Notes under the pieces: generated by a model | What the model was told of the DNA's origin: nothing | Databases searched by the model: none | What the model saw: the letters and a program-made list of their open reading frames with translations, nothing else | Part shown: positions 3,298 through 21,456 of the stretch, in pieces | Position numbering within the stretch: the stretch's first letter is position 1 | How the letters are laid out: every line of letters starts with the position of its first letter | Made by a program: the position numbers and the translations under genes | Origin: an uncultured Christensenella sp. | Lineage (GTDB): Bacteria > Bacillota > Clostridia > Christensenellales > UBA3700 | Direction of reading: 5' to 3' | Assembly: GCA_910578245.1 (NCBI GenBank) | Contig: CAJTPC010000003.1 | Span: forward strand, 5,259 to 69,258 | DNA length: 64,000 nt

Positions 3298-3358
3298 TCC
3301 TAATTTCTTTACAAAAAGTATAGACATAAATACAACACCATCAAATCTAATGCAATTA

Positions 3359-3387: not shown

Positions 3388-3445
3388 ATGCTATAAGGAG
3401 ATATTGGAAATAAAGTCAGTCAACACGCAAGGTTGAGTATAATGT

Positions 3446-4377: not shown

Positions 4378-4407
4378 AGAGACCTTGTGAAAACGAGGTC
4401 TTTTTTC
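4378..4407 (+). terminator. rho-independent terminator-like hairpin inside module A
   Basis: AGACCTTG / CGAGGTCT stem with one G-U pair, loop tgaaaa, followed by TTTTTT. Confidence 0.5.
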
Positions 4408-4557: not shown

Positions 4558-4640
4558 CCCCCAAAAATAACTTGCACTAAATTAAGCGAGATGTAGGAAG
4601 ACAGACAAAGACAAAAAACGATAAAACAAAGAAATTTAAG

Positions 4641-4669
4641 AGAGACCTTGTGAAAACGAGGTCTTTTTT
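4641..4669 (+). terminator. rho-independent terminator-like hairpin inside module B
   Basis: Same sequence as in module A: agagaccttgtgaaaacgaggtctttttt. Confidence 0.5.
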
Positions 4670-4794
4670 CCTATTTATGAGCCTAAATGAGTGAAGAGTA
4701 TCCTCAATAATTAAGTTACATCAAGTGTCAAAGAAAAGTGTCAGGCTTGCGTAAAGCAATCTTGTCGCAAGACATCGGTTCAGCATTCAATTCA

Positions 4795-4828
4795 AACCGC
4801 CGTACATTTGGTACGGCGGTTTTCTTTT
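4795..4828 (+). terminator. strong rho-independent terminator
   Basis: Perfect 11-bp stem AACCGCCGTAC / GTACGGCGGTT, loop atttg, followed by TTTTCTTTT. Confidence 0.8.
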
Positions 4829-4927: not shown

Positions 4928-4956
4928 TTGAAAACTCTTGATTATTGTGATATAAT
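4928..4956 (+). promoter_or_regulatory. near-consensus sigma-A promoter of the nine-gene operon (TTGAAA - 17 nt - TGaTATAAT)
   Basis: TTGAAA at 4928-4933, a 17-nt spacer, an extended -10 TG, and TATAAT at 4951-4956. An AAGGAG RBS at 4984-4989 precedes the ATG at 4995. Confidence 0.7.
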
Positions 4957-4994
4957 CTACCTTGTAAAGGAATTTGAAAAATTAAGGAGCGAGT

Positions 4995-6938
4995 ATGACG
5001 AATTTCGTTAAGAATTTGGAAGTTGCTATAGACCTTGGCAGTGATACAGTCAAGGTTGCGTATGCTTTTGAATCTAAAAATAGCGTAGAATACGGCAAAC
5101 TTGCCCCTTGCGATATTACGGGAAGTGTGATAGTTCCCGCCATTGCTTACTACGATGAGGAAACTTTGTCTTGGCTATTCGGAGAAGAGGTGTATAAAAA
5201 CGTCGATAGGTCTTTCGTGACCGTAGTCAAGATAAAGTCGTTGTTGTCACTACTTCTCATTCGTCGTAATAAGAGAGTGACGGCAAGCAACAAACAGTAT
5301 TATTTCGATAAAAATTTATTCCCCAAGTTCTATTTCCCCAACAGGAAAAAACTTGCCGAAGACTTTGCTAAGGCTGAGGACTTGGACATGACTTTTAAGG
5401 CCAACAAGACTCCGCAAGAAGTGTGTGAAGAGTTTTTTGGATATTTGATTGATAATACCGTAATGCCAGCAATTCAGAGGTTGCAAAAAGAGAGGGGGAT
5501 TCACTTTGAAAATATCAATTATTCGCTGGTGTATCCCACCAAGGCGGGCAAGGAATACGTTGAAGAGCTGGAGCGTCTGGCAACTCGCGCATGCGGGAAA
5601 GATATGAAAAAAGTTTTGTCTTCTACGAAAGCGTTGGGGCTATTTGCATACCACAGACAAGTGCTAAAGAAAGGAGATGCGGTAGTAATTTTCGATATGG
5701 GCGAGGAGGATATATCCGTCGCAAAATTCACTCTTAATTCATCGGGAAGTATGATTATCGACGGCGTGGACGGACACAATGAGCCGATGGAGATAGGCGG
5801 AAACGACTTTGACTATGCTTTAAGAGATTACGTGGAGGGCGTTATATCAGACAGAGAGACGGTAGGCGCTCCGCCTTCGGGCGAGGACGGATATATTGCC
5901 GAAAAGGGATTGCATTCAACGCAGTTTTTGACGCTCAACGAGATAAAAAAGACTAAGACGGCGCTTTCGCTAGACGATGAAATATTCGAACTTGCTTTTA
6001 AGGACGGCGTGACTATGTCCATACAGCGCGACGTTGTAGTTCAAACAGGCGTTACGAGAGATGATTTCCTTAAGTGCGTGGGTATAAAGAATAGCGATGG
6101 CGTAGCTAAAAAGATTGCCGATTATATAATCAGCGAGATGAAGAGAACTCTTAATAATGATGTGGATAAAGTGATGCTTTCAGGCGGGGTAAGCGAGACG
6201 TACGGACTTATAGAATATATAGACGGGCAGTTGAAAAACGCCGGCTTGCGAGTAGAGATTATCACATTTGACGACTATCAGAGCGAGGACGATAACTTTA
6301 CGATACTTTCTAACGAGGACTCGACTTTTGCTCCCGCGGTAGGCGGAGCTATCGTAGCGCTTATGGGATACGAACTCAAGATGGCGGTCGCGTTATCGTA
6401 CGGCACATGGTTGTACAACAAAAATATAAACAAGAAAATACTTGACGTTTTCTTGCTAAGAGGCAGAGTTATTCCTCCCAAGGGCGGGGAGTATTCCTGC
6501 TCGACTTACGTCAACTATAAGGACGCTTGGTCGGATAGAGTAAGGAACGAGGAGATTTTCTCTACTACGATTGGCAAAAAAGGCGACGTTATTGGCGACC
6601 CCGACAGCGAGATAAGAAGACAGAGAGAAAAAGATATTGACCTCAAGGTCGTGTCTGGCGGAGCAAATAAGGGCGAGATACTCTTTTATTGCAAGGATAA
6701 AGGGTCTTTGAAACGCGTGGAAATTCAAGGACTTCTCTATTTCAAAGAGGGCGTGAAGATAGACCCCGACGGCAGAGCTACGCCATTTATACACAATGAC
6801 GTGATGAAGAACGGCAGATATAATATGATACTTGTAAGACCTGTAGGGTCGTCGAGTTATCCTAAAAAGACCTATTATGAGAATATAGTATTAAAATTCA
6901 GCGGAGTCGACGACTTTGAAGTCGAGAGTTCCGATTGA
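4995..6938 (+). CDS. Hsp70/DnaK-like ATPase (actin-fold NBD plus beta-sandwich-like domain; no helical lid)
   Basis: AIDLGSDTVKVAY parallels the DnaK phosphate-1 motif GIDLGTTNS. VVIFDMGEEDISVA parallels FDLGGGTFDVS. EIGGNDFDYAL parallels LGGEDFD. VMLSGGVSETYGL parallels LVGGSTRIP. ALSYGTWL...RGRVIPPKGGEYS parallels PLSLGIET...RNTTIPTKKSQ of the substrate-binding domain. Confidence 0.8.
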   Translation: MTNFVKNLEVAIDLGSDTVKVAYAFESKNSVEYGKLAPCDITGSVIVPAIAYYDEETLSWLFGEEVYKNVDRSFVTVVKIKSLLSLLLIRRNKRVTASNKQYYFDKNLFPKFYFPNRKKLAEDFAKAEDLDMTFKANKTPQEVCEEFFGYLIDNTVMPAIQRLQKERGIHFENINYSLVYPTKAGKEYVEELERLATRACGKDMKKVLSSTKALGLFAYHRQVLKKGDAVVIFDMGEEDISVAKFTLNSSGSMIIDGVDGHNEPMEIGGNDFDYALRDYVEGVISDRETVGAPPSGEDGYIAEKGLHSTQFLTLNEIKKTKTALSLDDEIFELAFKDGVTMSIQRDVVVQTGVTRDDFLKCVGIKNSDGVAKKIADYIISEMKRTLNNDVDKVMLSGGVSETYGLIEYIDGQLKNAGLRVEIITFDDYQSEDDNFTILSNEDSTFAPAVGGAIVALMGYELKMAVALSYGTWLYNKNINKKILDVFLLRGRVIPPKGGEYSCSTYVNYKDAWSDRVRNEEIFSTTIGKKGDVIGDPDSEIRRQREKDIDLKVVSGGANKGEILFYCKDKGSLKRVEIQGLLYFKEGVKIDPDGRATPFIHNDVMKNGRYNMILVRPVGSSSYPKKTYYENIVLKFSGVDDFEVESSD

Positions 6939-6952
6939 GAGCGGAGGACAGA

Positions 6953-9766
6953 ATGGGAAAGAAATTTACGTTAAGATGTGGCGACGGCGCATTTGATAAG
7001 GATGTTCAACGCTCCAAGATAGCGGGAGAAGTCCGCCCATTTGACGCAAAAATGGCGACTTTGACTAAGTGCGCTGAAGAGCTTGACAGATACGACGATT
7101 TTGCCGAGCTTAAAATCAAGCCAGACGTTTATAAAAATCAAGGCGGTAAGTACGGTATTATTCCACTTGCGGATAAAGGCGGTCAGGCTATTCTCAAAGG
7201 ACAGCAGACGGCAGTTACGATTTTTCTTAAAGAATTGAGAGGTTTCGGACTTTTGGCGGACGTAGTAGGTAGCGGTAAGACTTTTGAAGCGTGCGCTATA
7301 CTAAGCGAACTTGCAGTCAGAGGCAAGATGAAGTCGCTCCTTTTAGTCGTACCGTCGCAGGTATACGACAGCTGGATAAACGTACTCGAAAATCTTTTCG
7401 GACTTGGAGAAGGCGTGCTTTTGCAAGTTGAAGATCCGCACTTTGATGAATGCGAGGAAGTTCTTGACGGATACGTAAGACGTCCTAAAAGACCTGTTAT
7501 CGTCAAGACGGAAGACTTTGTAAAGTGGAATGAAAATCAAATAAAAGACGTACTTTTCGACGTGGTAGTCGTAGACGAGGCGCATCACCTTTGCACGGAA
7601 GAGGGCGAATACGCTAAGGCAATGAAATTGTTATCAATGCTTATGATGACAAAGAAGAGAGCCAATTCGACCTATTGCGTATTGCTGTCGGCTACGCCGC
7701 ACTCGGGCAACCTCGACAAGATGTTCAGGCTTTGGTACTTCGTGCGTTGTAAGGGCGGTAATCCCGACGACTTCGACGTCAAGGACGATAAGGACCGTAC
7801 TCTCGATTACAAAAAGGAAAAGGAGTACTATAGACTCAACGTTTGCCGTGGCGCAAATACCGTGTCGGAATTTATTACGGCTGTCAAGCAATTTGAAATT
7901 GATAATAATTACACAGCTCCTTTCAATGCCTTCTTGAGAAAAAAGAAAGAACTCGACAAGTGGGATAACTATACTCAAGGCGAAAAGCAAGTCTTGAGAG
8001 AAGAGTTTTTGAATTTGGACGGCAATGAGAATATTCGTCAGGAAGTACTTAAGAGAGTTGCCGGCGCATATCACAACGGCGTATTGAGAACTATAATGAT
8101 ACGCCAGCCAAACGAGCTGAGCAAGTCGAGATTCGTATACAACAACTATTTCTATCCCATAGCGCCAACAGGTAGAATACTAACTACGCAAGGCGTGGAC
8201 GGCAGGACTATCAAAGTCGATTTGAAGGCGCTCAATACCAATAAGGCTGTAGAAGTAGACGGAGCGTTTTATTCGCTTAAGAGCTATGCCGAAGAGTTCT
8301 CAAAGAATGACAACGCTCAAGAGGCGTACGCAGAATTGGTAGTGTCCAAAATACTCGGTAAAATCGGGTCATTCAACGATCCGAGCATGTTTGATAAGAA
8401 AGACAGCCAAAAGTATTATTGGGAGCAGTTTGAGCGTAAAATAGCGTCGGAGAGCAACGATAGTTTTTGGCTTATGCCGGCGACTAACGACAGCTTTGAT
8501 TACAAACTCAAGCAGGCAAAGAAGATTCTTGACGAACACGCAGGCGAGAGAGCGTTGATATTTTTCGATTATGATTTGCCAAAGACTAGCAAGGGCTACC
8601 GTCAATGGAATAAGGTTATAGACGCGCTCCAAGCCGAGGAAAAGTTTAAGAACAGAATTATCGTAGGAACGGCGGAGAATAAGGACAAGAACGTCAAGAA
8701 GTTCTTGCAAAAAGAAGACGCTATTTTGATAGTCACCGATTCGGCGTTTACCGAGGGCGTCAATTTGCAGGACAGCAGAATTATAATCAATTTCCAAGTT
8801 ACTCCCGATCCGCTTGCTATGGACCAGAGAATCGGACGTGTGTTCCGCCTCGGACAGTCGAGCGACGTCAAGATATATTCCTTTGCGGACATGAACAAAC
8901 TTGAGGGATTTGCGCTTGCGTACTTCAATAGTATAGGACTTCTCACCAGCAACAGCGGTGACGCTACGATTATTGCGGGAAGTAACAACGAGAGAATGGT
9001 AGCATTGCGATGCCCCGCTTGCGGAAAGGTTGCGCTGTACTCGAAGGGCGATTATGAGATTGCAAAGAAAAAAGGCGAAACGTATTGTATCAACGAGCCG
9101 AAACTTTGTTGTCTTGACGACCCAAGAGGCACGCTAATGGAAGAAATCAACGTCTATGAATTCAAGTGTTCAAACTGTTCGACGACTCTCTCGCGTAGCG
9201 TCGGCGAGGGCGGATATAAATGTATATCTAAAAACAACGACGATAGAGGCACTATGTGCAATAGCGGAGCTTCGGGAGATAGGGAGTATTACTGCTCGAA
9301 GATATGCGCTATGCGACACTGCTCTAGGTTTAAGGGCGAGTTCAAAGGCAAGTGTAAGGTACTCAAAGCGTATGAGGAGAATCCCAACGTAGCTACATCG
9401 GACTTGCAGATTATATGCGCAAAGTGTTCCAACAAAGCCGAGTGTCCGCAAAGATGCAGATACGGAGTGGGCAGAGCAAGTATCGAGGCTTGCGCTTCGT
9501 GTAGGAACGCCGAGTGTCATCCTAAGCCGTATACCATATCGTTTGACGATAAGTGGTCGGCTAAATGTCCGATATGCGCGCAGAGGGGCGAAAAGGGAGT
9601 TTTGTATCCCGTAGTAGCTAGGACATTCGCGGCGTATATGAGAGCGTCTTGGGACTTTAAGCACGATGGCGGAGAATCTTTCTGTAACAACTTAATGAAA
9701 GAAGCAAGTAAAGTAGCGGATATAAAAGCTATATTGTCTATGGACAGTATGTCGGAGGGGAGGTAA
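6953..9766 (+). CDS. SNF2-family helicase with a C-terminal Cys-rich (multi zinc-ribbon) domain of about 250 aa
   Basis: Motif I is LLADVVGSGKTFEA (7268-7282 encodes GSGKT). Motif II is VVVDEAHHL (DEAHH at 7574-7588). Motif III is LLSATPHSGN. Motifs V/VI are TEGVNLQ and DQRIGRVFRLGQ. The tail from about 8990 carries at least 9 CxxC-type clusters. ATG 6953 follows a GGAGGA RBS; the ORF track begins at TTG 6935. Confidence 0.85.
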   Translation: MGKKFTLRCGDGAFDKDVQRSKIAGEVRPFDAKMATLTKCAEELDRYDDFAELKIKPDVYKNQGGKYGIIPLADKGGQAILKGQQTAVTIFLKELRGFGLLADVVGSGKTFEACAILSELAVRGKMKSLLLVVPSQVYDSWINVLENLFGLGEGVLLQVEDPHFDECEEVLDGYVRRPKRPVIVKTEDFVKWNENQIKDVLFDVVVVDEAHHLCTEEGEYAKAMKLLSMLMMTKKRANSTYCVLLSATPHSGNLDKMFRLWYFVRCKGGNPDDFDVKDDKDRTLDYKKEKEYYRLNVCRGANTVSEFITAVKQFEIDNNYTAPFNAFLRKKKELDKWDNYTQGEKQVLREEFLNLDGNENIRQEVLKRVAGAYHNGVLRTIMIRQPNELSKSRFVYNNYFYPIAPTGRILTTQGVDGRTIKVDLKALNTNKAVEVDGAFYSLKSYAEEFSKNDNAQEAYAELVVSKILGKIGSFNDPSMFDKKDSQKYYWEQFERKIASESNDSFWLMPATNDSFDYKLKQAKKILDEHAGERALIFFDYDLPKTSKGYRQWNKVIDALQAEEKFKNRIIVGTAENKDKNVKKFLQKEDAILIVTDSAFTEGVNLQDSRIIINFQVTPDPLAMDQRIGRVFRLGQSSDVKIYSFADMNKLEGFALAYFNSIGLLTSNSGDATIIAGSNNERMVALRCPACGKVALYSKGDYEIAKKKGETYCINEPKLCCLDDPRGTLMEEINVYEFKCSNCSTTLSRSVGEGGYKCISKNNDDRGTMCNSGASGDREYYCSKICAMRHCSRFKGEFKGKCKVLKAYEENPNVATSDLQIICAKCSNKAECPQRCRYGVGRASIEACASCRNAECHPKPYTISFDDKWSAKCPICAQRGEKGVLYPVVARTFAAYMRASWDFKHDGGESFCNNLMKEASKVADIKAILSMDSMSEGR

Positions 9767-9767
9767 T

Positions 9768-11417
9768 ATGGCAAGAATACATATAGGAAACGAATATTGC
9801 AAGACCTTTGACAGCATAGTCAAACTATACGAAGAAGGTTGCGTTGAGGACGGCGTTATTACAAAAATCGACGGCGATAGAATTGTCACGCCATCGCATG
9901 AATTCGTCCTATCAAGAGGAAGGTCAAGCAAGACTGGCGCGGAAAGAACGGCTTTGATAAACGAAAACGGCGCGACTTGGTTTGGCGCGTTCAGAGGCGA
10001 AAAATTCAAGAACAACACCGCCGAATGGCTAATGTTCGTAGAAACGATAAAGGAGCATTTCCATCGCAATTACTCCGTACTCGAATACCGTCCGAAGATC
10101 AAAGAAATATCCAAGGAATACGTCAATTCTCAAATAAAGCTGATTGACAACGCCTTGAAGTGTTTTTATGACGACTACGCTTTTGAGATAAAGAGAGCGG
10201 ACGATGAGGAAGGATTAGAGGACGTGTACGGCGCTTCGTTCAGAATGGAAATTACCGACGGTACAGGCGAAGCAGTACCGGTGCTCGGCAAGATATATTT
10301 CCGCAAGAAAGGAACTTCGTTTATCCCATTTAGCAGTAGTGAAGCAGAATTGATAGACGCGCATATCACCAAGAATTTCGACAGTGAAGAAGAAGGAGAG
10401 AATTTCTTGCAAAACAGCGCTCAATTGACGGATACTGTGGTCAACGAACTCGATAAACTCGTCAATTCAAGTAAGAACGACTTATCGTCAAATCTAGTGT
10501 TTACCGACCCTGCCGATAAAGAAGCAGTAGAACTTATGGTAGAAAAAGGACCTAACGATAACGTTGAATTGACTTGTTTAAGCCTTTCGCTACTCAATAT
10601 CTTCCACTTCAAGTGGCGAAGCGACATATACAACATTTTGCTAGAAGACAAGATTGTTCTTAAAGCAAGCGTGGGACTTGGCGGAAGATTGACTGTTTCG
10701 TGCAATTCATGCGCAGAAAAAACTACGCTTATAGAAGCCGGTAAAATCACTTTGAATTTCAAAGGAGCGCGCAGGAGCGTTACGATAGACCCAAAACTTG
10801 AGGATCTCAATTTGACGGCCTCGGCTATCGAAACGGCTAAAGAAAATCTTTTCTCAAAGCATTTGAAGAGAATAAGTTGCAATGAGAACGCGCGTTTGGC
10901 AGGTATATGCACCAAATATGTTTGCAGTGGCGATACCGTTACAATATCTTCTAAATCAGGATCAGTCTGCAAGTGCAAGAACTGTCCGCATCCGGAAGTA
11001 ATTTTTAAGTGCGACGACGGAGCGGTGAGATATACCAAAGACTTGGTATTTGTCAGAGACGCTATGACGCTTATGCCTAAGGAGAATACGGTAGAGTGTA
11101 GTTGTTGCGGTAGAACGTTTACTAAAGACAGCGATAAAGCTCAGTATACTTGCGATTTTTGTAAAATTGCGGACAGAGGTCTTGACGCTCTAGACGACAC
11201 CGAGTATCAAAGAGGCAAGACTTTGTATGGTAAGTACAGAGGTATGTTGCCGTTGACTACTAGGATGAAGAGCGCAAAACTGAAAAAATACTGTCAGGAA
11301 GATGAAGACTGCATTATGTTTGTTATAGATAAAGAGGTGTATATCTTCAATAAGGACGAGCAAGGCGAAGGCGGATTCCTAAAAGCGCCAATGCGCAAAA
11401 TCGGAGGTGAAGTATGA
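9768..11417 (+). CDS. hypothetical protein with a Cys-rich (zinc-ribbon-like) C-terminal half
   Basis: The ATG lies 1 nt after the SNF2 stop, with GGGGAGG upstream. Cysteine clusters include SCNSCAEK, CKCKNCPHPEVIFKCDD, ECSCCGRTF and YTCDFCK. No recognised catalytic motif. Confidence 0.7.
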   Translation: MARIHIGNEYCKTFDSIVKLYEEGCVEDGVITKIDGDRIVTPSHEFVLSRGRSSKTGAERTALINENGATWFGAFRGEKFKNNTAEWLMFVETIKEHFHRNYSVLEYRPKIKEISKEYVNSQIKLIDNALKCFYDDYAFEIKRADDEEGLEDVYGASFRMEITDGTGEAVPVLGKIYFRKKGTSFIPFSSSEAELIDAHITKNFDSEEEGENFLQNSAQLTDTVVNELDKLVNSSKNDLSSNLVFTDPADKEAVELMVEKGPNDNVELTCLSLSLLNIFHFKWRSDIYNILLEDKIVLKASVGLGGRLTVSCNSCAEKTTLIEAGKITLNFKGARRSVTIDPKLEDLNLTASAIETAKENLFSKHLKRISCNENARLAGICTKYVCSGDTVTISSKSGSVCKCKNCPHPEVIFKCDDGAVRYTKDLVFVRDAMTLMPKENTVECSCCGRTFTKDSDKAQYTCDFCKIADRGLDALDDTEYQRGKTLYGKYRGMLPLTTRMKSAKLKKYCQEDEDCIMFVIDKEVYIFNKDEQGEGGFLKAPMRKIGGEV

Positions 11418-14400
11418 AAAATATGATGTTTTCTAGCAATGAAAATATTGATTACTCTCAATCTACAAAAAAGACTTTCGGTAGCAGAAAGTTATTCCTA
11501 TTTATTATGGCTGTCTTGGCGACAGTCAGCGATTTTGCGTTGTTGGTAGTATTTGCGATTTCGGGACACGGCGGAATAGCGGTACCGGTGATATTGTTGA
11601 TACTCGACGGCTTGTTCATTGCGGGCGTATGTCTATGTAACTTCAGATTTAAGTATTCCATTGGCGTATGGGTAGCTTATATAATAATTTCCGTCATTAT
11701 TACGGCATTTTTGGCATTGCTAGATACAAAAGCAACGTATATGACGACTACGGCAAAATATCTTAACGTGTTCGCGCATATAGTGTTGTATCTCGTCACG
11801 ATTTTTGCAAGCATATATCCGCTGTTTAAGAAGAATATAAAACTAAAGGCAGTTATGATAACTTGCGTAACCGTAGCCGTTGTTTTGGTAGGCGCGTTTG
11901 CCGTATACTTTTCCGCCAACGGTTATTTTGGTCAAGGCTTCTTAGGCGAGAGCAGAGTAGTGGGCTATACGCTTGACGAGGAGAGCGATACTTATATTGC
12001 GTCTTTAGTTAAGTCGGGTAGAAGTAAAAAAGTCGTCATTCCGGCGCAGTTCAACGGCAAAAAGGTGTCGGGCGTGGAGTGCGAGATATTTACGGACAAA
12101 ACTGTGAATTTGGTAGAGATACAGACCGAGGAAAGTATTAGACTGTTAAATCCGCAAATGATAGAGAATATCAATCCCAATATCAAGATAGGTATAGATA
12201 AGAAGTATATCGACGTCTTTAGAGAAAAGGGACTTAAGGAACACGAGAACTACGGCGTAGGCGACGGTATGCTTAATTTTGCCAACGCTTTGTATCCTCT
12301 CAATCTCGCAAGCGATGAGGTATACGTCACCTTTAAGTATCAAGATTATCCTGAGCAAGAGGATATTATACCTACTTGGATAGGAAAGAAGGGACAGACT
12401 TTCAACCTAAATTATGCGAACGTAGATTATTTGCAACACGTCGACGCTCATAATGTGGACGATTTGGTATGGTGCTATTACAATAATGACACGCAAATTT
12501 TGACGGGCGAAATGATAAATCTTACCGGCAATAAAATCAGCGACAGCTTAGACAGCGTCAAAGTCGATTTTGAAAACGTATACAGATTTACAATGGCGGA
12601 CGACAATGACGGAGTATATGAGCCGGCGGATAGTTTTAAGACTACTCTCAGTAACAACGAGTTGTACGCGTATCGTTTCTTTACGATTGGCGGAGCCAGA
12701 GAATTACTTGATGATTTAACCGGTGAATTGATTGAGGATAGAGATAACGGATTTGACTTATCTTGGCAGTTTAGTTTGAAGTACAATTCCAATAGCTGGC
12801 AAAATGAAGATTGGTTTGATTTGGATATTGATAACTTTTTAATCAGTCTTGATGTACTCTCAAGTTATGCAAGCGATGAAATAAATCTAAAACTAAAGCC
12901 GATATGGGAACTTAAAAAACCTACTGATTTGAAAATATCTTACTTCAATAATAAGGTTGACTACGTTTACGGCGATGACGTGCGTATGGACGTAAGCGCA
13001 GAAGCGCCACTCAAGGGTTGTCAACTAAAATATAGTTGGTCGTGGCAAGGCGACGTCTATGGCGATGGAGAAGACAATGCCGATTCGACCGGCTTGACTT
13101 ACAGTATCAACAACGCATTCCCGCAAGAAGGAGTTTTTACGGTATACGTTGCCGTAAGTTATCCGGAAGTGACGGACTTGGAATCGTTTGACACGGTTTG
13201 CGCCCTTTTGCAAGTTGACAAACGTCCTTTGAATATAACTTGGGAAGAGCCTGCCGATATGGTTTACGACAGTTATGAAAAAGTCTTGAAGCATTACGTC
13301 GGCGATAACGAATTGATAAACGGCGACACGTTGGATTACGGTATGACCGAAACAAACGTGAGCAATATCAATGCGGGACGGTATACGGCAAGGCTGTCAT
13401 TGTACGGAATCATTGACGAAATGTATATAATTACTTCAGGCTCAACGTATTCTTATACGATTGCTCCCCGTTCTGTTCAAACTCAATGGACGAGCGTAGA
13501 CTATACTTATGACGGAAATCCGCACAATGCGATTGCTACCGCTCAAGGCATAGATTCGCTCGTGCCAATCAACTTGTCAAGCGCAAAAACCAATGCCGGC
13601 AAGTATACGGCGGTTGCTTCGTCTGCAAGCAGCAATTACGTATTGACAGACAATACCCATGAATTTGAAATCAAGCAAAAAAGCATTACGATAGGAGCTT
13701 GGAGCAGTACTCCTATTACGTACAACGGCTCGGCTCAATATCCGAGAGTCGCTACTATCAACGGACTTGTAGGCAACGAGAGCGTAAACAGCCAGCTTAT
13801 TTATTCGGGATACGCTTCTAATATTGACGCCGGAGAAGGTTACAGCGTAACCGTGACGTTGCCTTCGTCAAGCAACTATAAGTTTGACAGCGCTCAATCT
13901 ACACAGTATAATATAGCAAAGAGAGCGTTGAGCGTACGGCCAATCGTATCTGGCAAGACGTATGACGGATATGCAATCAGTCTTAACTTTACGGCAAGCG
14001 GTCTTGTGGGCGCGCACACCAACGGAAGCCTCGGAACGCCGACGTATAGCGGTAACGGAATGGGCGCGATAGACGTAGGTAGTTATACGGTATCAATATC
14101 GCTTCCTAATAATGACGTGACGAAGAACTACGACATAACGTATGCGAGCGCGTCCTTTACAATAACAAAAAGAGCGTTGAGTATCCGAGCGGTTGCTTCG
14201 AATAAGACCTATGACGGTAAGACAAATACCTTTGACTTTGAAGTAGTCAGCGGTCTTGCAAGCGCGCATACGAAGAATAGCCTCGGAACGCCGACGTACA
14301 GCGGTAACGGAGTAGATGCGGTAGACGCAGGCAGTTATTCTGTATCAGTGTCGCTTCCTAATAATGACGTGACGAAGAACTATAACATATCTTATGCAAG

Positions 14401-14698
14401 CGCCAACTTCACTATTTCGAAGGCTAAAGTAGCTCTTGTATGGAGCAATGTCCTTGTCAGCGACGGAAGAGTGACTGCGCCTAGCGTTGTGACAAGCGGA
14501 CAGGTTTATTCGGGAGATATCAGCGTAGGAAGTTATACGTATAGAGATTCCTCCGGCAGAATAATTAATTCGATACCTGCCGTAAGCGGAACTTATTACG
14601 TTGAAGTTGCGGTTACGAGCGGAAATTACAGCTTTACGAATACCCATATCAACTTTACGGTATCCGTAGGCGAAACTCAAGAAAAGGAGGTAGCGTAA
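11414..14698 (+). CDS. 5-TM membrane-anchored protein with a large extracytoplasmic region of MBG/YDG-type repeats
   Basis: The ATGA start/stop overlaps the upstream gene. Five hydrophobic helices lie within residues 25-170. Repeated modules carry (T/K)Y(D/N)G ... G(K/S)Y(T/S) ... NY signatures (YTYDGNPH, ITYNGSAQ, KTYDG x2), typical of MBG-type adhesin repeats. Confidence 0.75.
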   Translation: MKNMMFSSNENIDYSQSTKKTFGSRKLFLFIMAVLATVSDFALLVVFAISGHGGIAVPVILLILDGLFIAGVCLCNFRFKYSIGVWVAYIIISVIITAFLALLDTKATYMTTTAKYLNVFAHIVLYLVTIFASIYPLFKKNIKLKAVMITCVTVAVVLVGAFAVYFSANGYFGQGFLGESRVVGYTLDEESDTYIASLVKSGRSKKVVIPAQFNGKKVSGVECEIFTDKTVNLVEIQTEESIRLLNPQMIENINPNIKIGIDKKYIDVFREKGLKEHENYGVGDGMLNFANALYPLNLASDEVYVTFKYQDYPEQEDIIPTWIGKKGQTFNLNYANVDYLQHVDAHNVDDLVWCYYNNDTQILTGEMINLTGNKISDSLDSVKVDFENVYRFTMADDNDGVYEPADSFKTTLSNNELYAYRFFTIGGARELLDDLTGELIEDRDNGFDLSWQFSLKYNSNSWQNEDWFDLDIDNFLISLDVLSSYASDEINLKLKPIWELKKPTDLKISYFNNKVDYVYGDDVRMDVSAEAPLKGCQLKYSWSWQGDVYGDGEDNADSTGLTYSINNAFPQEGVFTVYVAVSYPEVTDLESFDTVCALLQVDKRPLNITWEEPADMVYDSYEKVLKHYVGDNELINGDTLDYGMTETNVSNINAGRYTARLSLYGIIDEMYIITSGSTYSYTIAPRSVQTQWTSVDYTYDGNPHNAIATAQGIDSLVPINLSSAKTNAGKYTAVASSASSNYVLTDNTHEFEIKQKSITIGAWSSTPITYNGSAQYPRVATINGLVGNESVNSQLIYSGYASNIDAGEGYSVTVTLPSSSNYKFDSAQSTQYNIAKRALSVRPIVSGKTYDGYAISLNFTASGLVGAHTNGSLGTPTYSGNGMGAIDVGSYTVSISLPNNDVTKNYDITYASASFTITKRALSIRAVASNKTYDGKTNTFDFEVVSGLASAHTKNSLGTPTYSGNGVDAVDAGSYSVSVSLPNNDVTKNYNISYASANFTISKAKVALVWSNVLVSDGRVTAPSVVTSGQVYSGDISVGSYTYRDSSGRIINSIPAVSGTYYVEVAVTSGNYSFTNTHINFTVSVGETQEKEVA
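13919..14419 (+). repeat. two adjacent 83/84-aa coding repeats (about 250 nt each) inside the MBG protein
   Basis: KRALSVRPIVSGKTYDG...SLPNNDVTKNYDITYASASFTIT aligns with KRALSIRAVASNKTYDG...SLPNNDVTKNYNISYASANFTIS. An identical 32-nt block tcgcttcctaataatgacgtgacgaagaacta occurs at 14099 and 14351. Confidence 0.85.
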
Positions 14699-15843
14699 TG
14701 AAGTGCAATAAATGTAATCACGACATTGAGAGACCTTTGGAACTTTACAACGGTAGGTGGTGTTGTCCGAGTTGCAAGAAAGACATCTTCCCCGACGTTG
14801 ATACTGAATTTGTAATTACCGCTCACAATAGAGAATTATTCGTAAGGTCGGAAGAGTATTATTTCAAATGGCTTACGTCCTCCGATGAGAGTAAGAGCGT
14901 AAGATTTAAGTATTTAGATAAGGCGGTCAGTCTTTGCTATGAGTCAGCTTTCGAATACCATCCGTCTGCTCTTATGAGATTGGGATATTATTATGATAGA
15001 GGCTATGCCGATTTTAGCTCGGCTGGAGCGGAAAGATGGAGATCGGCGTATTTCTATTACAAAGCCGTACTCTTCAATACACATAGAGGAATATCTACTC
15101 AAGAGGGAGAAGAGAGATATGCAGACGACCTCACGCAAATCAAATTGCAGTGCGGCAAGTATATGCTTGACTTACTAAAACAAGCTCCTTTAGAGGTGAC
15201 GAATAAAATTTCTTTTGACGGTTATGAGAATCTTGAAAAGTTGACGAGTGAAGTTATAAATAAGATAGTTTCGCTAGGCGGTACAGTTGGGCAATACGAC
15301 GGTCAGAGCGCAACTCGCGAGCAAGACATGTCGGCAATGGCTTACGCATCGCTTAGAGCTTGCGCCGATGAAGAGAGAGCGCCTGTATTCGCTATATTTA
15401 AGTTGAGTAAGTATGAGGCGCAAAAGTTGATATTAGGCTCGTCCGATAGCGATTTTTCCATAGTAGAACGCGTAGGAAGAGATTTGCGTCTTAAGATTGC
15501 AAGCGCGTATGACGACAAGGAGATAGACGGTAAATTCGCCGATTTCAAAAACTCCAATTCGCTCGTCAATTACGTGCAGAACAGATGTCCTGATAAGGGA
15601 ATATACCTATGTTTCTTTAATTGGCTAGGGGGGCATAAATATCTCAAGAAGAGAGATAGAAGCCGTGTTTGTCAATGCTTGGAAGACAACTCTTGCGCGG
15701 GCATCAAGTTGCTTATAAGAGCAGGCAAATACAATTCTTGCGTATTCTACGACGACGACTTTTATAAGTATGACGAGGGACGCAAGGGATTGAGTAAAAA
15801 AGAAGTAGATAAATTTGTCAAAGAAGTTTGCGAGGTGATTTGA
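14698..15843 (+). CDS. N-terminal zinc-ribbon protein with a possible Sel1/TPR-like segment
   Basis: The TAATG start overlaps the upstream stop. MKCNKCNHDIE...WCCPSCKKDIF forms a CxxC-N16-CxxC ribbon. ALMRLGYYYDRGYA...ERWRSAYFYYKAV loosely resembles a Sel1 repeat; this part is tentative. Confidence 0.65.
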   Translation: MKCNKCNHDIERPLELYNGRWCCPSCKKDIFPDVDTEFVITAHNRELFVRSEEYYFKWLTSSDESKSVRFKYLDKAVSLCYESAFEYHPSALMRLGYYYDRGYADFSSAGAERWRSAYFYYKAVLFNTHRGISTQEGEERYADDLTQIKLQCGKYMLDLLKQAPLEVTNKISFDGYENLEKLTSEVINKIVSLGGTVGQYDGQSATREQDMSAMAYASLRACADEERAPVFAIFKLSKYEAQKLILGSSDSDFSIVERVGRDLRLKIASAYDDKEIDGKFADFKNSNSLVNYVQNRCPDKGIYLCFFNWLGGHKYLKKRDRSRVCQCLEDNSCAGIKLLIRAGKYNSCVFYDDDFYKYDEGRKGLSKKEVDKFVKEVCEVI

Positions 15844-15844
15844 G

Positions 15845-17338
15845 TTGTTAGACCTTGAAAGGCTGTTGGACGCGCTTGACGAAAACAAAGTCAAGTATCC
15901 AAAAAAATTCAAAAATATCGAACTTAACGGTTATGACAGCAACCGTTGCGAGGACTTTGCCGATGATTCAAGGAAGGCTATTGAATGGCTTTTGGCAAAG
16001 GGTATCAACAATGGCTTTGACAATAATATCAAGACTGCAATTTACGATCTTGCCGATATGGCGGGAGATATGTCCAAAGATAATATCGCAGTAAAACTCG
16101 ATGATATGCAGGACAAAAAACAACAAATTATCAAGAAGTTCAGATTGAACAAAGGAGAAGGCAAAATGGCAGATATAAAGGGAGAAATCTTAGCTTACGT
16201 CGACAATTCGATTTTCGGTACGAAAATGCTTATTGACAGCGACAGCGTATCGGACTACAATAAGTCGATACTTATGAATTCGCTTGAGATGCTTGAGGAG
16301 TTGAGATTCATAATCGAGGACGCTTTGGACAACTCTTCCGAGGACGCGGCGCACAGAGCAAAGTACGTCTACGGCGATCCCACTTACGCGTTGTGCGCTT
16401 GGAGAGAGAGCGTTGCGCGCGGTATGTTCTACGATGGACTGAATAAGCACCTTGAAGAGGCCAGAGCAGAGGCTGTCAAATGGACGGAACTTACCAAAGA
16501 AGTTAAAAAGAATAAGAGAGCCAAAGAAGCTGATATAAAGGTATATACCGACGATATGTTCTCCAAAATGGTCAAGAGAGATGAGGTCAAGGAAAAAGGC
16601 GACGCTTTCTTTGCAAAACTCAATACCTTTGACAAGCAATTCGAGATACAGAAAGATACCTATGACAGAGTGTCGGAAATCAATAGCGATATAGAGGAAA
16701 TTCAAAGCAAAATATCCGCGCTTATCGACAAAATGGACAGCGGAGAAATGCTTGAAGAAGAAGCTCTCTTGCAGATAGAGATGCTTCAAGACGATGAAGA
16801 ACTCAAAAAGACGGAGAGAGAAACGTATAGAGCAAGCCTTAAGATGATTGCTAGTACCGTATCGGGAATGAAGAGATTGCTCACGCAGTTCAAGAGATTG
16901 GAACTCATATTCAATATGTATCAAAAGGTAGAGCCTAATATGTTCTACGCTATGTTCTCCAATATCGACTTCAACACTTTCTTAGACGTATTGAGTTACG
17001 GCGCAAGCGAAACGCAAATTAATACGGCGCTCAGTTATTATGAAATAGTAATGGAAAACGTGCAGGATCAGACTATGCATATGGCGCAAGTAGACAATCG
17101 CTTTGCAGAGGCGAATAAGATTTTCGACAGATTCAAGACTCCGCAGAAAAAGAAGACGGCGCAAGACGCCGAGAAAGAAGAACAAGCTAAAAAAGATAAG
17201 ATTGCCGAGCTTCGTAAAAAGTATAAAAAGCCTGCTCCGGTAGTTGAAAATAAAGAAAAAGAAGAAGAGCAACGCGTTGAGAATGACGAAAATGACGATT
17301 TGACGCAGATTATCAATACTATAACACCTAAAAAATAA
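15845..17338 (+). CDS. long alpha-helical/coiled-coil protein with a K/E-rich tail (hypothetical)
   Basis: TTG start 1 nt after the upstream stop, with a GAGGTGA RBS. Strongly helical, charged sequence. The C-terminal 70 aa is a K/E/Q-rich low-complexity region. Confidence 0.65.
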   Translation: MLDLERLLDALDENKVKYPKKFKNIELNGYDSNRCEDFADDSRKAIEWLLAKGINNGFDNNIKTAIYDLADMAGDMSKDNIAVKLDDMQDKKQQIIKKFRLNKGEGKMADIKGEILAYVDNSIFGTKMLIDSDSVSDYNKSILMNSLEMLEELRFIIEDALDNSSEDAAHRAKYVYGDPTYALCAWRESVARGMFYDGLNKHLEEARAEAVKWTELTKEVKKNKRAKEADIKVYTDDMFSKMVKRDEVKEKGDAFFAKLNTFDKQFEIQKDTYDRVSEINSDIEEIQSKISALIDKMDSGEMLEEEALLQIEMLQDDEELKKTERETYRASLKMIASTVSGMKRLLTQFKRLELIFNMYQKVEPNMFYAMFSNIDFNTFLDVLSYGASETQINTALSYYEIVMENVQDQTMHMAQVDNRFAEANKIFDRFKTPQKKKTAQDAEKEEQAKKDKIAELRKKYKKPAPVVENKEKEEEQRVENDENDDLTQIINTITPKK

Positions 17339-17358
17339 GTCCCAATGAGGAGTGAAAA

Positions 17359-18111
17359 ATGGCAAGCAGAGATCAAAAGGAAAGACAGCTAAAACAAGCT
17401 ACGCCCGATCCGTATGAGAAAATAATGGCGGACAATCAACGCAAGTTGGAGAGCAAAATGCTCGATGGAAAGCGTAATGAAATGGAAATGGCTATAGAGG
17501 ACCTTGGAAGAAAGGCGATAGAAAGCGAAATGAAATATGGCTCAGAACATTTCAATACCAAGATTTTGACAATGTTCTACAACGTGACCTTCACTATGAA
17601 AGAGTTCGTAGGAATGATGTTCGCGATGAAAGAAGCTATGAGCGTGCTTTCGCAGACTATGAATATCATGGACGACGTATTTAATTTCATCAATGAAATG
17701 ATGATGATTGACAACTACGGCAGTTATTCGGCTTTGGGTCGTATGAAATTGCAACGCAGAATTCGCAAATTCGTAAAGCACAATTCTAATAGAATGAAAG
17801 CTATGTTCAAAATGGTAAGCGGTTACGGTAAGATTGCCGATGGCATGATGAACGCTATGGGTAGCTTCGATAAAAAACTCAAGAAGAGTATGGACGCAAG
17901 CAAAGGCAAGAAGAAAAATGATAACGTTGTAGCGGGATACGAGAGCGAAGCGCAAAAACAACTTGCTAAAATGAGAGAGCAAATGTCAAAAGAAAATTCT
18001 GACGATAGCGACGGCGAGAGCTCGACTGGTAGCGCTCCAAGCGGAACGCCGACAAATAGCGGAGCGTCCGCTTCAGGCAGTGGCGATATCAATATCGACG
18101 ATATTGTGTAA
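17359..18111 (+). CDS. Met-rich helical protein with an acidic/Ser-Gly tail; possibly ESCRT-III/Snf7- or PspA-like
   Basis: ATG with a GAGGAG RBS. 250 aa. The core is basic and helical (AMKEAMSVLSQTMNIMDDVFNFINEMMMID, RMKLQRRIRKFVKH). The tail is disordered and ends in GDINIDDIV. The family assignment rests on composition and architecture only. Confidence 0.6.
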   Translation: MASRDQKERQLKQATPDPYEKIMADNQRKLESKMLDGKRNEMEMAIEDLGRKAIESEMKYGSEHFNTKILTMFYNVTFTMKEFVGMMFAMKEAMSVLSQTMNIMDDVFNFINEMMMIDNYGSYSALGRMKLQRRIRKFVKHNSNRMKAMFKMVSGYGKIADGMMNAMGSFDKKLKKSMDASKGKKKNDNVVAGYESEAQKQLAKMREQMSKENSDDSDGESSTGSAPSGTPTNSGASASGSGDINIDDIV

Positions 18112-18134
18112 GATTATAGTACAAGGAAGAAATT

Positions 18135-19280
18135 ATGGCAAACGACGAGCAGAAAAAAGAGGGCGTAGAAGAGCTTGAGAGTAAGCTCCGCGCCGTCACG
18201 GAAGATATTCGCAAGATACTGGGCGGTCGCAAGGACAAAAAAGACGTGGGCGAGGAAGATAAGAATACGTTGCGTTCAAAGTATTCTCAAGCCGCTCAAA
18301 TTGCGCGCACGCTTTCAAATAGATGTACCGATACCGACAAGATAGAGAAGTATTCTAAGTTTTATAAGCAACTCAGCGACGCGGCGGCTAGTTACGGCTC
18401 GGTACTAAAGAGCAAAGTTCCTAATACAACTTTGGACGACGTCAAAGGACTTGACGACGTCAAGGCTCTCGTCAAGAGTTTTATCTTCATGGCTCGCAAT
18501 CCCGAGATACTTAAGTATTATAAAATGGAAGGCGGATTGGGTATGCTTATGTACGGCGCGCCCGGTACCGGTAAAACTATGTTTGCCGAGGCAATAGCCA
18601 ACGCTATGAATCTACCTCTCTTTATAGTTACGCCAGCAGATATTTTCAAGTCATACGTAGGCGAGTCGGAGCAAGCCGTAAAGCAAATATTCGATGAGAT
18701 AGACACATGTCCGGACGGCGCAATACTTTTCGTCGATGAGTGCGAGTCTATCTTTAGCAGACGTACTCAAGATACCAAGGACTATAAGTCGGCGGTTACT
18801 ACTGAACTTTTGCAACGTATCAACGGCTTTGGCGTTGACGGTTCGAAGAGAATTATGATCGGCGCAACAAATAGACCAGACGTAATAGATCCGGCGTATT
18901 TAAGATATAAGAGATTTTCGCATATAGTTCACGTTACGCCTCCTGATTTTGAGGCAAAGAAAGCTATTATAGAAGGCAAACTTAAGGGGATAGAACTTGA
19001 CGATATATCGCTTGAAGAAGTCGTCAATATGACTAAGGAGTACACCAATGAGGTGGACGACAACGGCGAAGTGCGCACGGTTGCGTACTATTCCGCGGCG
19101 GATATATGCGGTATTATTGAAGAAACTTGTCGTTACGCATTAGAAGAGATAGAGGAGAGCGGCGGGAATAAGGCAATACCTTTGCGCCTTGATATGTTTG
19201 AGAGGGCGTTTAAGAAAATCCCGCCAAGCATAAGCGCAGGATTGCTCGAAGAATACGAGAACTTCCGCAATACTCATTGA
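18135..19280 (+). CDS. classical-clade AAA+ ATPase, Vps4/katanin/spastin-like, with an N-terminal three-helix (MIT-like) region
   Basis: Walker A is GAPGTGKT (18555-18578). Walker B is ILFVDECE (18726-18740 encodes LFVDE). SYVGESEQAVKQIF parallels SKWLGESEKLVK of Vps4. GATNRPDVIDPAYLRYKRF lacks the PGRFD motif of FtsH/Cdc48 and resembles the RRRFE-type meiotic clade. The first 90 aa or so form three predicted helices. Confidence 0.8.
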   Translation: MANDEQKKEGVEELESKLRAVTEDIRKILGGRKDKKDVGEEDKNTLRSKYSQAAQIARTLSNRCTDTDKIEKYSKFYKQLSDAAASYGSVLKSKVPNTTLDDVKGLDDVKALVKSFIFMARNPEILKYYKMEGGLGMLMYGAPGTGKTMFAEAIANAMNLPLFIVTPADIFKSYVGESEQAVKQIFDEIDTCPDGAILFVDECESIFSRRTQDTKDYKSAVTTELLQRINGFGVDGSKRIMIGATNRPDVIDPAYLRYKRFSHIVHVTPPDFEAKKAIIEGKLKGIELDDISLEEVVNMTKEYTNEVDDNGEVRTVAYYSAADICGIIEETCRYALEEIEESGGNKAIPLRLDMFERAFKKIPPSISAGLLEEYENFRNTH

Positions 19281-19326
19281 TAATATCAAATTTGCTCTAT
19301 TATTATGTATTTTGGCAATTCTATAA

Positions 19327-19356
19327 AGGATAGGTGGATCTACCTGTCCTTTTTTG
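19327..19356 (+). terminator. rho-independent terminator closing the nine-gene operon
   Basis: A 9-bp stem AGGATAGGT / ACCTGTCCT with one G-U pair, loop ggatct, then TTTTT. Confidence 0.7.
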
Positions 19357-19440
19357 ATATTTATATCGCAACTCTACGGAGCGTAGGTACTTTTTATCAA
19401 TAAATTATGGTACAATATTCTTAAAGGAAAGGAGGTATTT

Positions 19441-20046
19441 ATGGACGTAATCAAAATCGGTCAATTTATCAGAAATTTAAGGAAAGAAAGGTCTTTAACG
19501 CAACGGGAAGTTGCCGAGCAGTTGCACGTATCTGAAAAGACTATTTCAAAATGGGAAACAGGCAAGGGCTTTCCGGAAATAAGTTTAATGCTTCCGCTAT
19601 GCAATTTTTTTGGAATTAGTATGAATGAACTTTTATCGGGAGAAAGACTTGACGAAAAGCAGTACGTTGAGAATGCAGAGAAAAATATAATTTCGCTTGT
19701 CAATGATAGAACAACGCCGCGCAGGAAAGTTATTATATCTTCAATTTCTTGTTTTTTTGCAACGCTGGCAAGTCTTGCTTTAATTCTCATATCAGCCTTT
19801 TTTGTAACCCAAGTATGGCTTCGACTTGTAATGATAGGAATTGCCTTAATTGTTGTGATTTCTAATGTGGCAGTGATTCTTCTAGTTGCGGTGAGCACGG
19901 AGATTTATAAATGCGATAAGTGCGGAGAAAAATTCGCGCCGACATTATCCGCTTATATTTTCGCGCCACATACTTTTAGTCGGCGTTATTTGAAATGCCC
20001 TCACTGCGGTAAAAAATGTTGGGATAAAAGTAATATAAGAAAATGA
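19441..20046 (+). CDS. XRE-family HTH regulator fused to two TM helices and a C-terminal zinc ribbon
   Basis: IRNLRKERSLTQREVAEQLHVSEKTISKWETGKGFPEISLMLPLCNFFGISMNELL is a typical Cro/C1 HTH. It is followed by the hydrophobic segments ISSISCFFATLASLALILISAFF and LVMIGIALIVVISNVAVILLVAV, then CDKCGEKF...CPHCGKKC. Confidence 0.8.
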   Translation: MDVIKIGQFIRNLRKERSLTQREVAEQLHVSEKTISKWETGKGFPEISLMLPLCNFFGISMNELLSGERLDEKQYVENAEKNIISLVNDRTTPRRKVIISSISCFFATLASLALILISAFFVTQVWLRLVMIGIALIVVISNVAVILLVAVSTEIYKCDKCGEKFAPTLSAYIFAPHTFSRRYLKCPHCGKKCWDKSNIRK

Positions 20047-20049
20047 TTT

Positions 20050-21426: not shown

Positions 21427-21456
21427 TGTTCCCGTCCATAGGCAGGACTTGCGACC

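Follow-up and report, generated by a model that had tools for sequence, protein, structure and literature searches.

Zorya is a membrane-anchored defence complex with an SNF2-type partner, and Hhe, which like the PADLOC candidate PDC-S37 is a DUF4011 superfamily 1 (SF1) helicase with a C-terminal endonuclease, is described as a single-gene system. To our knowledge, motors of the Hsp70-like, SNF2 and AAA+ types are not known to work together in bacteria. Hsp70-like modules occur in CoCoNuT type III McrBC loci, predicted restriction systems in which CnuD has a nucleotide-binding domain (NBD) and a substrate-binding domain (SBD) with degenerate catalytic motifs (PMC11090510), and the PSP survey lists bacterial Vps4-like ATPases paired with a TPR/six-transmembrane protein (PMC11237479). 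Here we analyse an operon of eight co-directional open reading frames (ORFs), g1 to g8, located on the plus strand at positions 4995-19280 of a 64,000-nucleotide stretch of contig CAJTPC010000003.1 from an uncultured Christensenella sp. This whole stretch is referred to as the window.

All eight proteins were scanned against the Pfam, NCBIfam, PADLOC and PHROGs family libraries, hereafter the four libraries. Within these libraries and the literature searched, the operon corresponds to no described system, as a preliminary description of the sequence had supposed. The literature on sets of Hsp70-like, SNF2, AAA+, zinc-ribbon, DUF4011 and Vps4 proteins offered CoCoNuT, ARMADA and the PSP survey as related work, none of which describes this gene set. 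We favour, with a probability of about 0.4, the interpretation that the operon encodes a lineage-specific, chromosomally fixed and membrane-anchored multi-ATPase system that surveys and neutralises incoming foreign nucleic acid at the envelope. If so, it would be a conflict system of a new, non-mobile kind. The operon and its signals comprise the following parts.

4794-4822, plus strand: upstream intrinsic terminator, 12-bp stem (7 GC pairs) and T-run
4928-4956, plus strand: operon promoter TTGAAA-17-TATAAT (11/12 match) with an extended −10 TG
4983-4988, plus strand: ribosome-binding site AAGGAG, six bases 5' of the g1 ATG at 4995
4995-6938, plus strand: g1, 647 aa, highly divergent Hsp70-like actin-fold ATPase (motifs, weak profile match)
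6935-9766, plus strand: g2, 943 aa, SNF2-family ATPase with a Cys-rich C-terminal tail of about 290 aa (Pfam, motifs)
9768-11417, plus strand: g3, 549 aa, orphan with an N-terminal GTGxxVP domain followed by CxxC pairs (homologue alignment)
11414-14698, plus strand: g4, 1094 aa, five N-terminal transmembrane helices and an extracellular MBG/Ig-like repeat region of about 920 aa (hydropathy, Pfam)
13884-13912, plus strand: internal sigma-70 consensus TTGACA-N17-TATAAT within g4 (12/12 match), 786 nt upstream of g5
14698-15843, plus strand: g5, 381 aa, zinc ribbon, Sel1/TPR-like repeats and a novel alpha/beta C-terminal domain (alignments, AlphaFold2 model)
15845-17338, plus strand: g6, 497 aa, charged orphan, probably coiled-coil (composition, 22% E+K)
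17359-18111, plus strand: g7, 250 aa, Met-rich all-helical orphan (alignment, AlphaFold2 model)
18135-19280, plus strand: g8, 381 aa, single-domain classical-clade AAA+ ATPase with a helical N-domain of about 90 aa (Pfam AAA)
19325-19352, plus strand: downstream intrinsic terminator, 12-bp stem and TTTTTT tract

The junctions from g1 to g8 measure, in order, −4, +1, −4, −1, +1, +20 and +23 nt. The near-consensus promoter, the terminators on both sides, the single strand and the gaps of −4 to +23 nt given in the preliminary description were all confirmed from the sequence, and the operon itself is real. Its count of nine genes was a miscount, since its own list held eight entries, and eight genes were found. 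The four libraries recognised only the SNF2 core of g2, the MBG repeats of g4 and the AAA+ domain of g8. Five of the eight proteins are orphans, with g3, g5, g6 and g7 having no match in any library. Nuclease, methylase, toxin and J-domain families likewise found no match among the eight proteins in these libraries, in line with the absence of such motifs noted earlier.

Gene order and forms of the operon

Relatives of g1 number in the hundreds, all from uncultured Clostridia (Borkfalkia, Christensenellales and 'Christensenella sp.') apart from one bin labelled Anaeroplasma. When 1.84 billion cluster representatives were searched exhaustively with a g1 profile, 224 clusters were retrieved at E ≤1e-3, with all listed matches at E ≤1e-33. 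As delimited by sequence, the g1 family is thus small and has sharp limits. Wherever a locus is long enough for a judgement, its genes follow the order g1-g2-g3-g4-g5, over a range of identities from 97% to about 25%, and the most remote g1 relatives from the exhaustive search still show this order. The comparison of gene neighbourhoods that had been proposed as a check on the operon was thus passed strongly. Among the loci found, the five-gene core is limited to Christensenellales-type gut Clostridia. A gene order that persists through such deep divergence implies that the products form one physical machine. The bin labelled 'Anaeroplasma sp.' (L020, contig JAZNYN010000017.1; compared loci are numbered with the prefix L) carries g1-g2-g3 at 26-42% identity on a contig that ends after g3. 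Its label lies outside the Christensenellales-type hosts of all other loci, which could reflect mis-binning or a rare transfer.

The operon occurs in three forms. The 5-gene form consists of g1-g5, for example in L018. In that locus hrcA-grpE-dnaK lies about 530 bp past g5 (15711-20873), and since these genes are present separately, such genomes own a normal Hsp70 system besides g1. The 8-gene form is found in the window and in L004-L011, L021, L022, L024 and L026, as well as in L025 and L027, which are both cut at the contig end. The 10-gene form, carried by lineages at intermediate distance, is complete in L023, L028 and L029 and is cut by the locus end in L012-L015. It has two extra genes between g6 and g7 (L023, 12698-19195; L028, 12643-19117; L029, 12652-19245). 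The first encodes an orphan of about 650 aa with a C-terminal HExxH, the second a protein of about 1510 aa with DUF4011, AAA_11, AAA_12 and MTES_1575 domains, that is, an SF1 helicase with an endonuclease domain. This helicase-nuclease matches the PADLOC models PDC-S37 (E 3.5e-103) and Hhe (E 2.4e-57). A protein of the Hhe/PDC-S37 type is therefore a component of the 10-gene form, in which it is embedded in a larger unit, whereas it is absent from the 8-gene form of the window.

In the synteny table, g6 is present in the 8- and 10-gene forms and absent from the 5-gene form, and g7 is always paired with g8. The Borkfalkia-type loci L028 and L029 carry both g7 and g8 after the HExxH and helicase genes. 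Thus, g6-g8 form an optional 3' block, and the HExxH and helicase-nuclease genes a further optional block. The g2 proteins of the 10-gene lineages are 48-53% identical to those of the window's group, compared with 67-98% within the group; as these lineages are outgroups by g2 identity, the window's form has probably lost the two genes. In a mouse-gut metagenome locus with an identical g1 (L046, 4802-6450), g3 is split into two ORFs of 253 and 293 aa, owing either to a frameshift in this allele or to misassembly.

The genes of the operon evolve at very different rates. The most conserved are g2 and g8, while g4 is by far the least conserved and the fastest evolving, with 52-63% identity where the other operon genes show 79-97%. 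In the same comparisons the g4 ectodomain is 48-52% identical, its own transmembrane region 73-78% and the other genes 79-94%. The g4 proteins of the most remote loci reach 1762 and more than 2273 aa. We do not claim accelerated evolution of the whole operon: in the closest species group the flanks and the operon diverge alike, except for g4. For one shared MFS gene the identity is 83-95%, against 33-89% for the operon proteins in the same comparisons.

Components compared with described systems

The g1 protein contains the motifs DLGSD, K79/K81, FDMGEEDISV, IGGNDFD and LSGGxxET. Little or no variation is seen among 22-23 homologues in DLGSD (residues 13-17), FDMGEED (233-239), IGGNDFD (267-273) and LSGG (394-397), motifs that align to DLGGGTFD and LGGDDWD of DnaK. 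All motifs of the looser actin-fold ATPase definition, namely phosphate-1 DxG, phosphate-2 DxG, GG(D/E)DFD and the adenosine GG, are found in the right order. The Pfam HSP70 model (PF00012) scores 13.5 bits, below its gathering cut-off of 20.6, and a g1 profile built from 23 sequences aligned to the DnaK NBD alone in the Protein Data Bank (PDB; E 0.025). From these motifs and the weak NBD alignment, we regard g1 as Hsp70-like in a loose sense. The DnaK-like part of its earlier annotation is retained on this basis, but the beta-type SBD assigned to it was not confirmed. The C-terminus is formed by a conserved domain of about 190 aa with an acidic GVDxFxV tail, and when PDB was searched by sequence only with a profile of the last 190 residues, DnaK chains were not retrieved. 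A role as foldase is disfavoured, because GEED replaces the GGGT of the phosphate-2 loop, with GG altered to EE, and the Glu of NEPTAA has no counterpart.

The operon shares several traits with the DnaK-DnaJ-GrpE system: the Hsp70-type motifs of g1 (IGGNDFD and the phosphate-1 and -2 loops), its acidic C-terminal tail, the TPR/Sel1-like repeats of g5, which recall Hsp70-TPR pairs, and the zinc-binding Cys clusters in g2, g3 and g5, as in DnaJ. However, it lacks a J domain and GrpE, g1 is under the HSP70 threshold and its C-terminal domain shows no sequence similarity to the DnaK SBD. CoCoNuT similarly combines a divergent Hsp70-like module with coiled-coil and zinc-ribbon parts (PMC11090510). 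The McrB GTPase, McrC/DUF2357, HEPN and cold-shock domains of CoCoNuT are missing from the operon, and g1 belongs to a separate small family. CoCoNuT was rejected as an identification, as neither an McrB-type GTPase with NxD nor McrC/DUF2357 was found in the eight proteins with Pfam, NCBIfam and PADLOC.

The start of g2 is ambiguous, either TTG at 6935 (943 aa) or ATG at 6953 (937 aa), the latter being used by gene callers on identical contigs. Both lobes of the motor pass Pfam, with 47.9 bits for SNF2-rel_dom (cut-off 24.9) and 42 bits for Helicase_C (cut-off 23.5), and motifs I, II and VI are intact (GSGKT, DEAHH and QRIGRVFRLGQ). Of its 31 Cys residues, 23 lie within the last 300 residues. 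Judged by these features, g2 is a bona fide SNF2 ATPase with a Cys-rich tail, in agreement with the preliminary description. The profiles nearest to its motor domain are BrxH, DrmD, DpdE and RapA, all far under their family cut-offs, and its closest solved relative by sequence is the RNA-polymerase-associated RapA.

The likeness to defence helicases is confined to this motor. DrmD of DISARM, BrxHI/HII of BREX and DpdE of Dpd are its best profile matches (E 1e-28 to 1e-29), but g2 scores 4-10 times under the respective cut-offs, its Cys-rich tail lies outside the matched stretches, and the operon has no DrmA/B/C, methylases, PglZ/BrxC or DpdA-K. DISARM was rejected because g2 reaches 100 bits on DrmD against a cut-off of 610, the partial DrmD/DrmA-type matches fall on the motor alone, and DrmB, DrmC and a methylase are missing. 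BREX and Dpd were rejected likewise, since their partial BrxHI/HII- and DpdE-like matches all fall on g2, which reaches 92 of the 500 bits required for DpdE. With Zorya the operon shares a membrane-embedded component and a cytoplasmic SNF2-family ATPase, g2 being a weak ZorD match (PADLOC E 3e-14). It differs in having neither MotAB-like ZorA/ZorB nor ZorC, in a ZorD score of only 21 bits against the NCBIfam cut-off of 1500, in a membrane protein that is a five-helix anchor with a huge ectodomain, and in the additional Hsp70-like and AAA+ ATPases. ZorA, ZorB and ZorC were not matched in PADLOC and NCBIfam and the ZorD score failed, so Zorya was also dismissed.

Alignment of g3 homologues revealed a conserved N-terminal GTGxxVP and invariant CxxC pairs at residues 312/315, 403/406, 444/447 and 462/465, which are predicted to build several zinc ribbons. 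The protein has no family match in the four libraries or among PDB sequences, where zinc-finger noise was the most that appeared. Homology of the Cys-rich tail of g2 to g3 was considered, but a BLASTP E value of 0.23 provides no evidence for it.

According to hydropathy, g4 has five N-terminal hydrophobic segments preceded by a positively charged N-terminus, giving a topology with the N-terminus inside and the C-terminus outside. Its Pfam MBG_2 match is just over threshold, and the repeat units 837-919 and 920-1003 are 67% identical. These findings bear out the earlier prediction of a five-transmembrane protein with extracellular MBG-like repeats. The coding region around the internal promoter at 13884-13912 is hypervariable, unlike the promoter hexamers, which are nucleotide-invariant in eight loci, third codon positions included, while the spacer and flanks vary. 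The AGCAACTATAAG block upstream of the promoter has 11 of 12 bases identical across the same eight loci. Since the hexamers and most of AGCAACTATAAG are invariant amid varying flanks, a functional promoter is indicated. It is probably a second promoter, from which g5-g8 could be expressed apart from g1-g4.

The invariable linkage of a membrane protein to a dsDNA-translocase-type ATPase and several zinc-ribbon proteins raises the question of whether the operon encodes an apparatus for DNA uptake or export, in which g4 would be the envelope part, g2 the motor, and the zinc ribbons and helicase-nuclease the processing enzymes. The presence of the helicase-nuclease in the fuller forms would fit this function, and competence machinery is typically encoded by chromosomal genes that are inherited vertically. 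Nevertheless, Pfam, NCBIfam and PADLOC relate no component to competence, conjugation or secretion, the five transmembrane helices of g4 bear no channel-family signature, and we know of no SNF2 enzyme that acts as a transmembrane DNA pump. We consider DNA transport highly improbable.

The g5 protein starts with a zinc ribbon (CxxC...CPxC), followed by a helical repeat region at about 42-224 that resembles Sel1/TPR weakly, and ends in a C-terminal domain with invariant N308, G311, H313 and D352-D354 in alignments. Its AlphaFold2 model is confident, with a predicted local distance difference test (pLDDT) score of 85.5. A Foldseek search with this model against PDB and BFVD gave nothing at E <0.08, the weak matches being Sel1/TPR proteins. 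Of its annotation as a zinc-ribbon plus Sel1-like protein, the zinc ribbon is retained, whereas the Sel1-like label is backed by weak matches only. No family in the four libraries and no PDB sequence matched g6.

The g7 protein contains 10.8% Met and consists of a stack of long helices of about 215 residues, a Gly/Ser linker and a conserved C-terminal peptide, which reads DINIDDIV in the window and DDISDIL or DNWGDVL in distant relatives. The Met-rich helical character stated in the preliminary description thus holds. Its AlphaFold2 model is all-helical and poor (pLDDT 53), and a search of PDB sequences gave nothing beyond zinc-finger noise. By contrast with the orphans, g8 is clearly assigned by Pfam AAA (PF00004; E 1.7e-32, 113 bits vs a cut-off of 21.2). 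It has the Walker A motif GAPGTGKT, the Walker B motif FVDECE, the pore loop YVG and Arg fingers, and NRPDVIDPAYLR is readable in its translation. Its best PADLOC match is IetA and its best PDB match the D2 domain of VCP. With IetA (E 4.6e-33) g8 shares a classical AAA+ architecture of one ATPase domain and a helical N-domain, but it scores 99 bits on the NCBIfam IteA model against a cut-off of 510 and there is no IetS-type serine protease. IetAS was rejected, as the IteA_antiphage score fails and the window holds no protease partner.

Although g8 was confirmed as a classical AAA+ ATPase, the meiotic or Vps4-like clade originally ascribed to it is not established, because the CDC48-D2 and PAN models score about as well as CdvC, all far under their cut-offs. 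This affects the idea that the g7-g8 pair performs ESCRT-like membrane remodelling or repair, with g7 as an ESCRT-III-type polymer and g8 as a Vps4/CdvC-type ATPase acting near g4. As in the archaeal Cdv/ESCRT-III-Vps4 system, a classical-clade AAA+ protein is paired with a small helical protein. Residues 69-378 of g8 align to positions 73-365 of the 370 in the CdvC model (E 5.6e-38), nearly its whole length, and there is a weak Vps4_C match. The helices, flexible linker and conserved terminal peptide of g7 moreover resemble an ESCRT-III protein with its Vps4-binding MIM tail, and the seven best Foldseek PDB matches of the g7 model are CdvB2 ESCRT-III filaments. However, these matches are non-significant (E 0.6-1.1, template modelling score about 0.2) and come from a model of low confidence. 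Neither Pfam, applied to 20 g7 homologues, nor a PDB profile search detected a Snf7/PspA signal, and Pfam did not detect in g8 the MIT domain by which the Vps4 N-terminus binds ESCRT-III tails. Cdv was rejected as an identification: g8 scores 131 bits on CdvC against a cut-off of 650, no better than on CDC48/PAN, and no MIT match appeared at E ≤0.1. The bacterial Vps4-like arrangement of the PSP survey, with its TPR/six-transmembrane partner, also differs from that of the operon (PMC11237479). As the 5-gene form lacks g6-g8, these genes are dispensable and do not provide the core function. Membrane remodelling, which the preliminary description had offered as an alternative to defence on the strength of the Vps4-like label, is therefore very unlikely.

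Chromosomal setting

The G+C content of the operon is 0.42-0.46, equal to that of the rest of the window and host-like, and the rest of the window is ordinary chromosome with glycogen genes, mfd and ABC transporters. In the compared loci the neighbours are of a housekeeping type (rpsR, an MFS transporter and hrcA-grpE-dnaK), with rpsR directly upstream of the operon in L024. Related species share upstream genes among themselves, although not with the window, and several clades share the downstream MFS gene. Of the contigs read, 23 contain the HTH gene that lies downstream in the window, and in each of them the operon adjoins it (six distinct contexts shown). No relatives of g1 were found in plasmid, phage and IMG/VR collections. 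Host-like G+C content, shared flanks, presence in all sampled contexts and the lack of g1 relatives in mobile-element collections indicate that the operon behaves as a stable, vertically kept chromosomal locus and is not itself an island. A mobile defence island was accordingly ruled against, and the accessory or defence-island context that had been presumed was not borne out. The operon instead behaves in part like vertically inherited genes without accessory distribution, being a stable locus in all sampled strain contexts, an outcome that had been named in advance as speaking against a role in conflict.

The immediate flanks are variable. Positions 1-4100 of the window have a G+C content of 0.30-0.33 and contain a small serine resolvase (1994-2770) and orphan ORFs. 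Related species are without this block, which is probably an inserted mobile cassette. The terminator at 4794-4822 shields the operon from it. A break about 550 bp upstream of g1 recurs in many assemblies and fits a variable or repeated element there. Two near-identical terminator-like hairpins (AGAGAGACCTTGTGAAAACGAGGTCTTTTT) occur in the intergenic region upstream of the operon at 4376-4405 and 4638-4669, about 260 nt apart, and look like a repeated element. Downstream of the operon, at 19441-21531, the window has an XRE-type HTH gene, a YjbR gene and tRNA-Val. Two strain contexts (L040, 13934-20606; L041, 7920-15693) have a prophage-like insertion a few kb past HTH-YjbR, where the window has tRNA-Val, comprising a large serine recombinase, a CI-like repressor, ERF, SSB and HNH. 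Because of these insertions, the stretch past HTH-YjbR looks like an integration hotspot. The setting between a recombinase cassette and a tRNA gene noted in the preliminary description is thus real in the window, but it is a variable flank and not part of the unit.

Past the tRNA, at 21910-25974, the window encodes a 1354-aa BspA-type LRR_5/Flg_new surface protein without adjoining chaperone or ATPase genes, and the Borkfalkia loci L002 and L003 encode a similar one upstream of the operon.

The stable position, the flanks common to several related species and the occurrence in all sampled strains, together with the host-like G+C content and housekeeping neighbours, would also suit a lineage-specific housekeeping machine that makes, anchors, quality-controls or regulates g4 as a giant adhesin or envelope organiser. 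The Hsp70-like, AAA+ and, in other lineages, HExxH proteins would then be chaperone, extractor and protease, and the SNF2 motor and zinc ribbons would act on transcription like RapA. It is consistent with this explanation that g4 is the one constant partner with a known cellular location, that the nearest solved relative of g2 is RapA, and that an Hsp70-like protein, an AAA+ protein and a putative metallopeptidase constitute a protein-handling set. On the other hand, other large surface proteins in the window, such as the LRR_5/Flg_new protein, do without such partner genes, the 5-gene form does without both the AAA+ and the HExxH protein, and the active site of g1 departs from that of foldase Hsp70s. 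Furthermore, we know of no adhesin pathway with an SNF2 motor or a DUF4011 helicase-nuclease. We regard the housekeeping explanation as unlikely, while taking it seriously.

A proposed envelope-anchored conflict system

The favoured interpretation, a chromosomally fixed system acting against foreign nucleic acid at the envelope, is supported by the invariant linkage of g1-g5 from 97% to about 25% identity, and by the Hhe/PDC-S37-like helicase-nuclease that sits inside the operon in several lineages. It is also supported by the fact that the best SNF2 matches of g2 are the defence helicases BrxH, DrmD and DpdE, in addition to RapA, by the g4 ectodomain evolving far faster than the rest, and by the modular gain and loss that gave 5-, 8- and 10-gene forms. 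Precedents may be seen in the architecture of Zorya and in the Hsp70-like NBD/SBD modules of CoCoNuT (PMC11090510). The anti-phage role put forward in the preliminary description has thereby gained one new support, the helicase-nuclease in related operons, but lost its premise of a defence island.

In such a system, the Ig-like array of g4 would serve as contact or sensor surface, while its transmembrane bundle and cytoplasmic tail would nucleate a cytoplasmic complex. The g2 translocase and the zinc-ribbon proteins g3 and g5 would engage DNA, or a DNA-protein complex, entering at the site of g4, and g1 would act as a nucleotide-controlled clamp or switch that may bind the TPR-like region of g5 through its acidic C-terminal tail. 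As an adaptor, g7 would dock with its C-terminal peptide on the N-domain of g8, an unfoldase that would disassemble or reset the complex or unfold a target protein. In the 10-gene form the helicase-nuclease would degrade the nucleic acid. In the 8-gene form of the window this step would have been lost or perhaps taken over, for which the His/Asp C-terminal domain of g5 is the sole candidate. We infer all protein-protein contacts in this scheme.

Several observations weigh against an immune function. The window's form is without a recognisable nuclease or other effector in the library scans of its eight proteins, and the operon is not patchy at the sampled scales, as all strain contexts read carry it and related species share its flanks. 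The host-like G+C content, the housekeeping-type neighbours and the missing g1 relatives in mobile-element collections point in the same direction. Such a non-mobile, core-like distribution is no less compatible with a cellular function than with immunity. Any adhesin would also be expected to evolve fast, and the helicase-nuclease may have entered the operon secondarily.

In its most explicit version, which we put forward tentatively and with some doubt, the operon would encode an undescribed immune machine, anchored in the envelope and fixed across an order of gut Clostridia. A hypervariable Ig array would signal through a five-transmembrane anchor to an Hsp70-like switch, an SNF2 motor and zinc ribbons, an adaptor/AAA+ pair, possibly ESCRT-III/Vps4-like, would reset or execute the response, and an optional helicase-nuclease would destroy the invader.

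The gene set is unprecedented and deeply conserved, and its host range is narrow and uncultured. If it is immune, the operon would represent a new envelope-sensing architecture and a defence system with the distribution of core genes, a type that escapes screens based on guilt by association with defence islands. If it has a cellular function, it would represent new envelope or DNA-handling biology in the Christensenellales, a poorly cultured gut lineage. Either way, the 5-, 8- and 10-gene forms provide a defined, clonable series.

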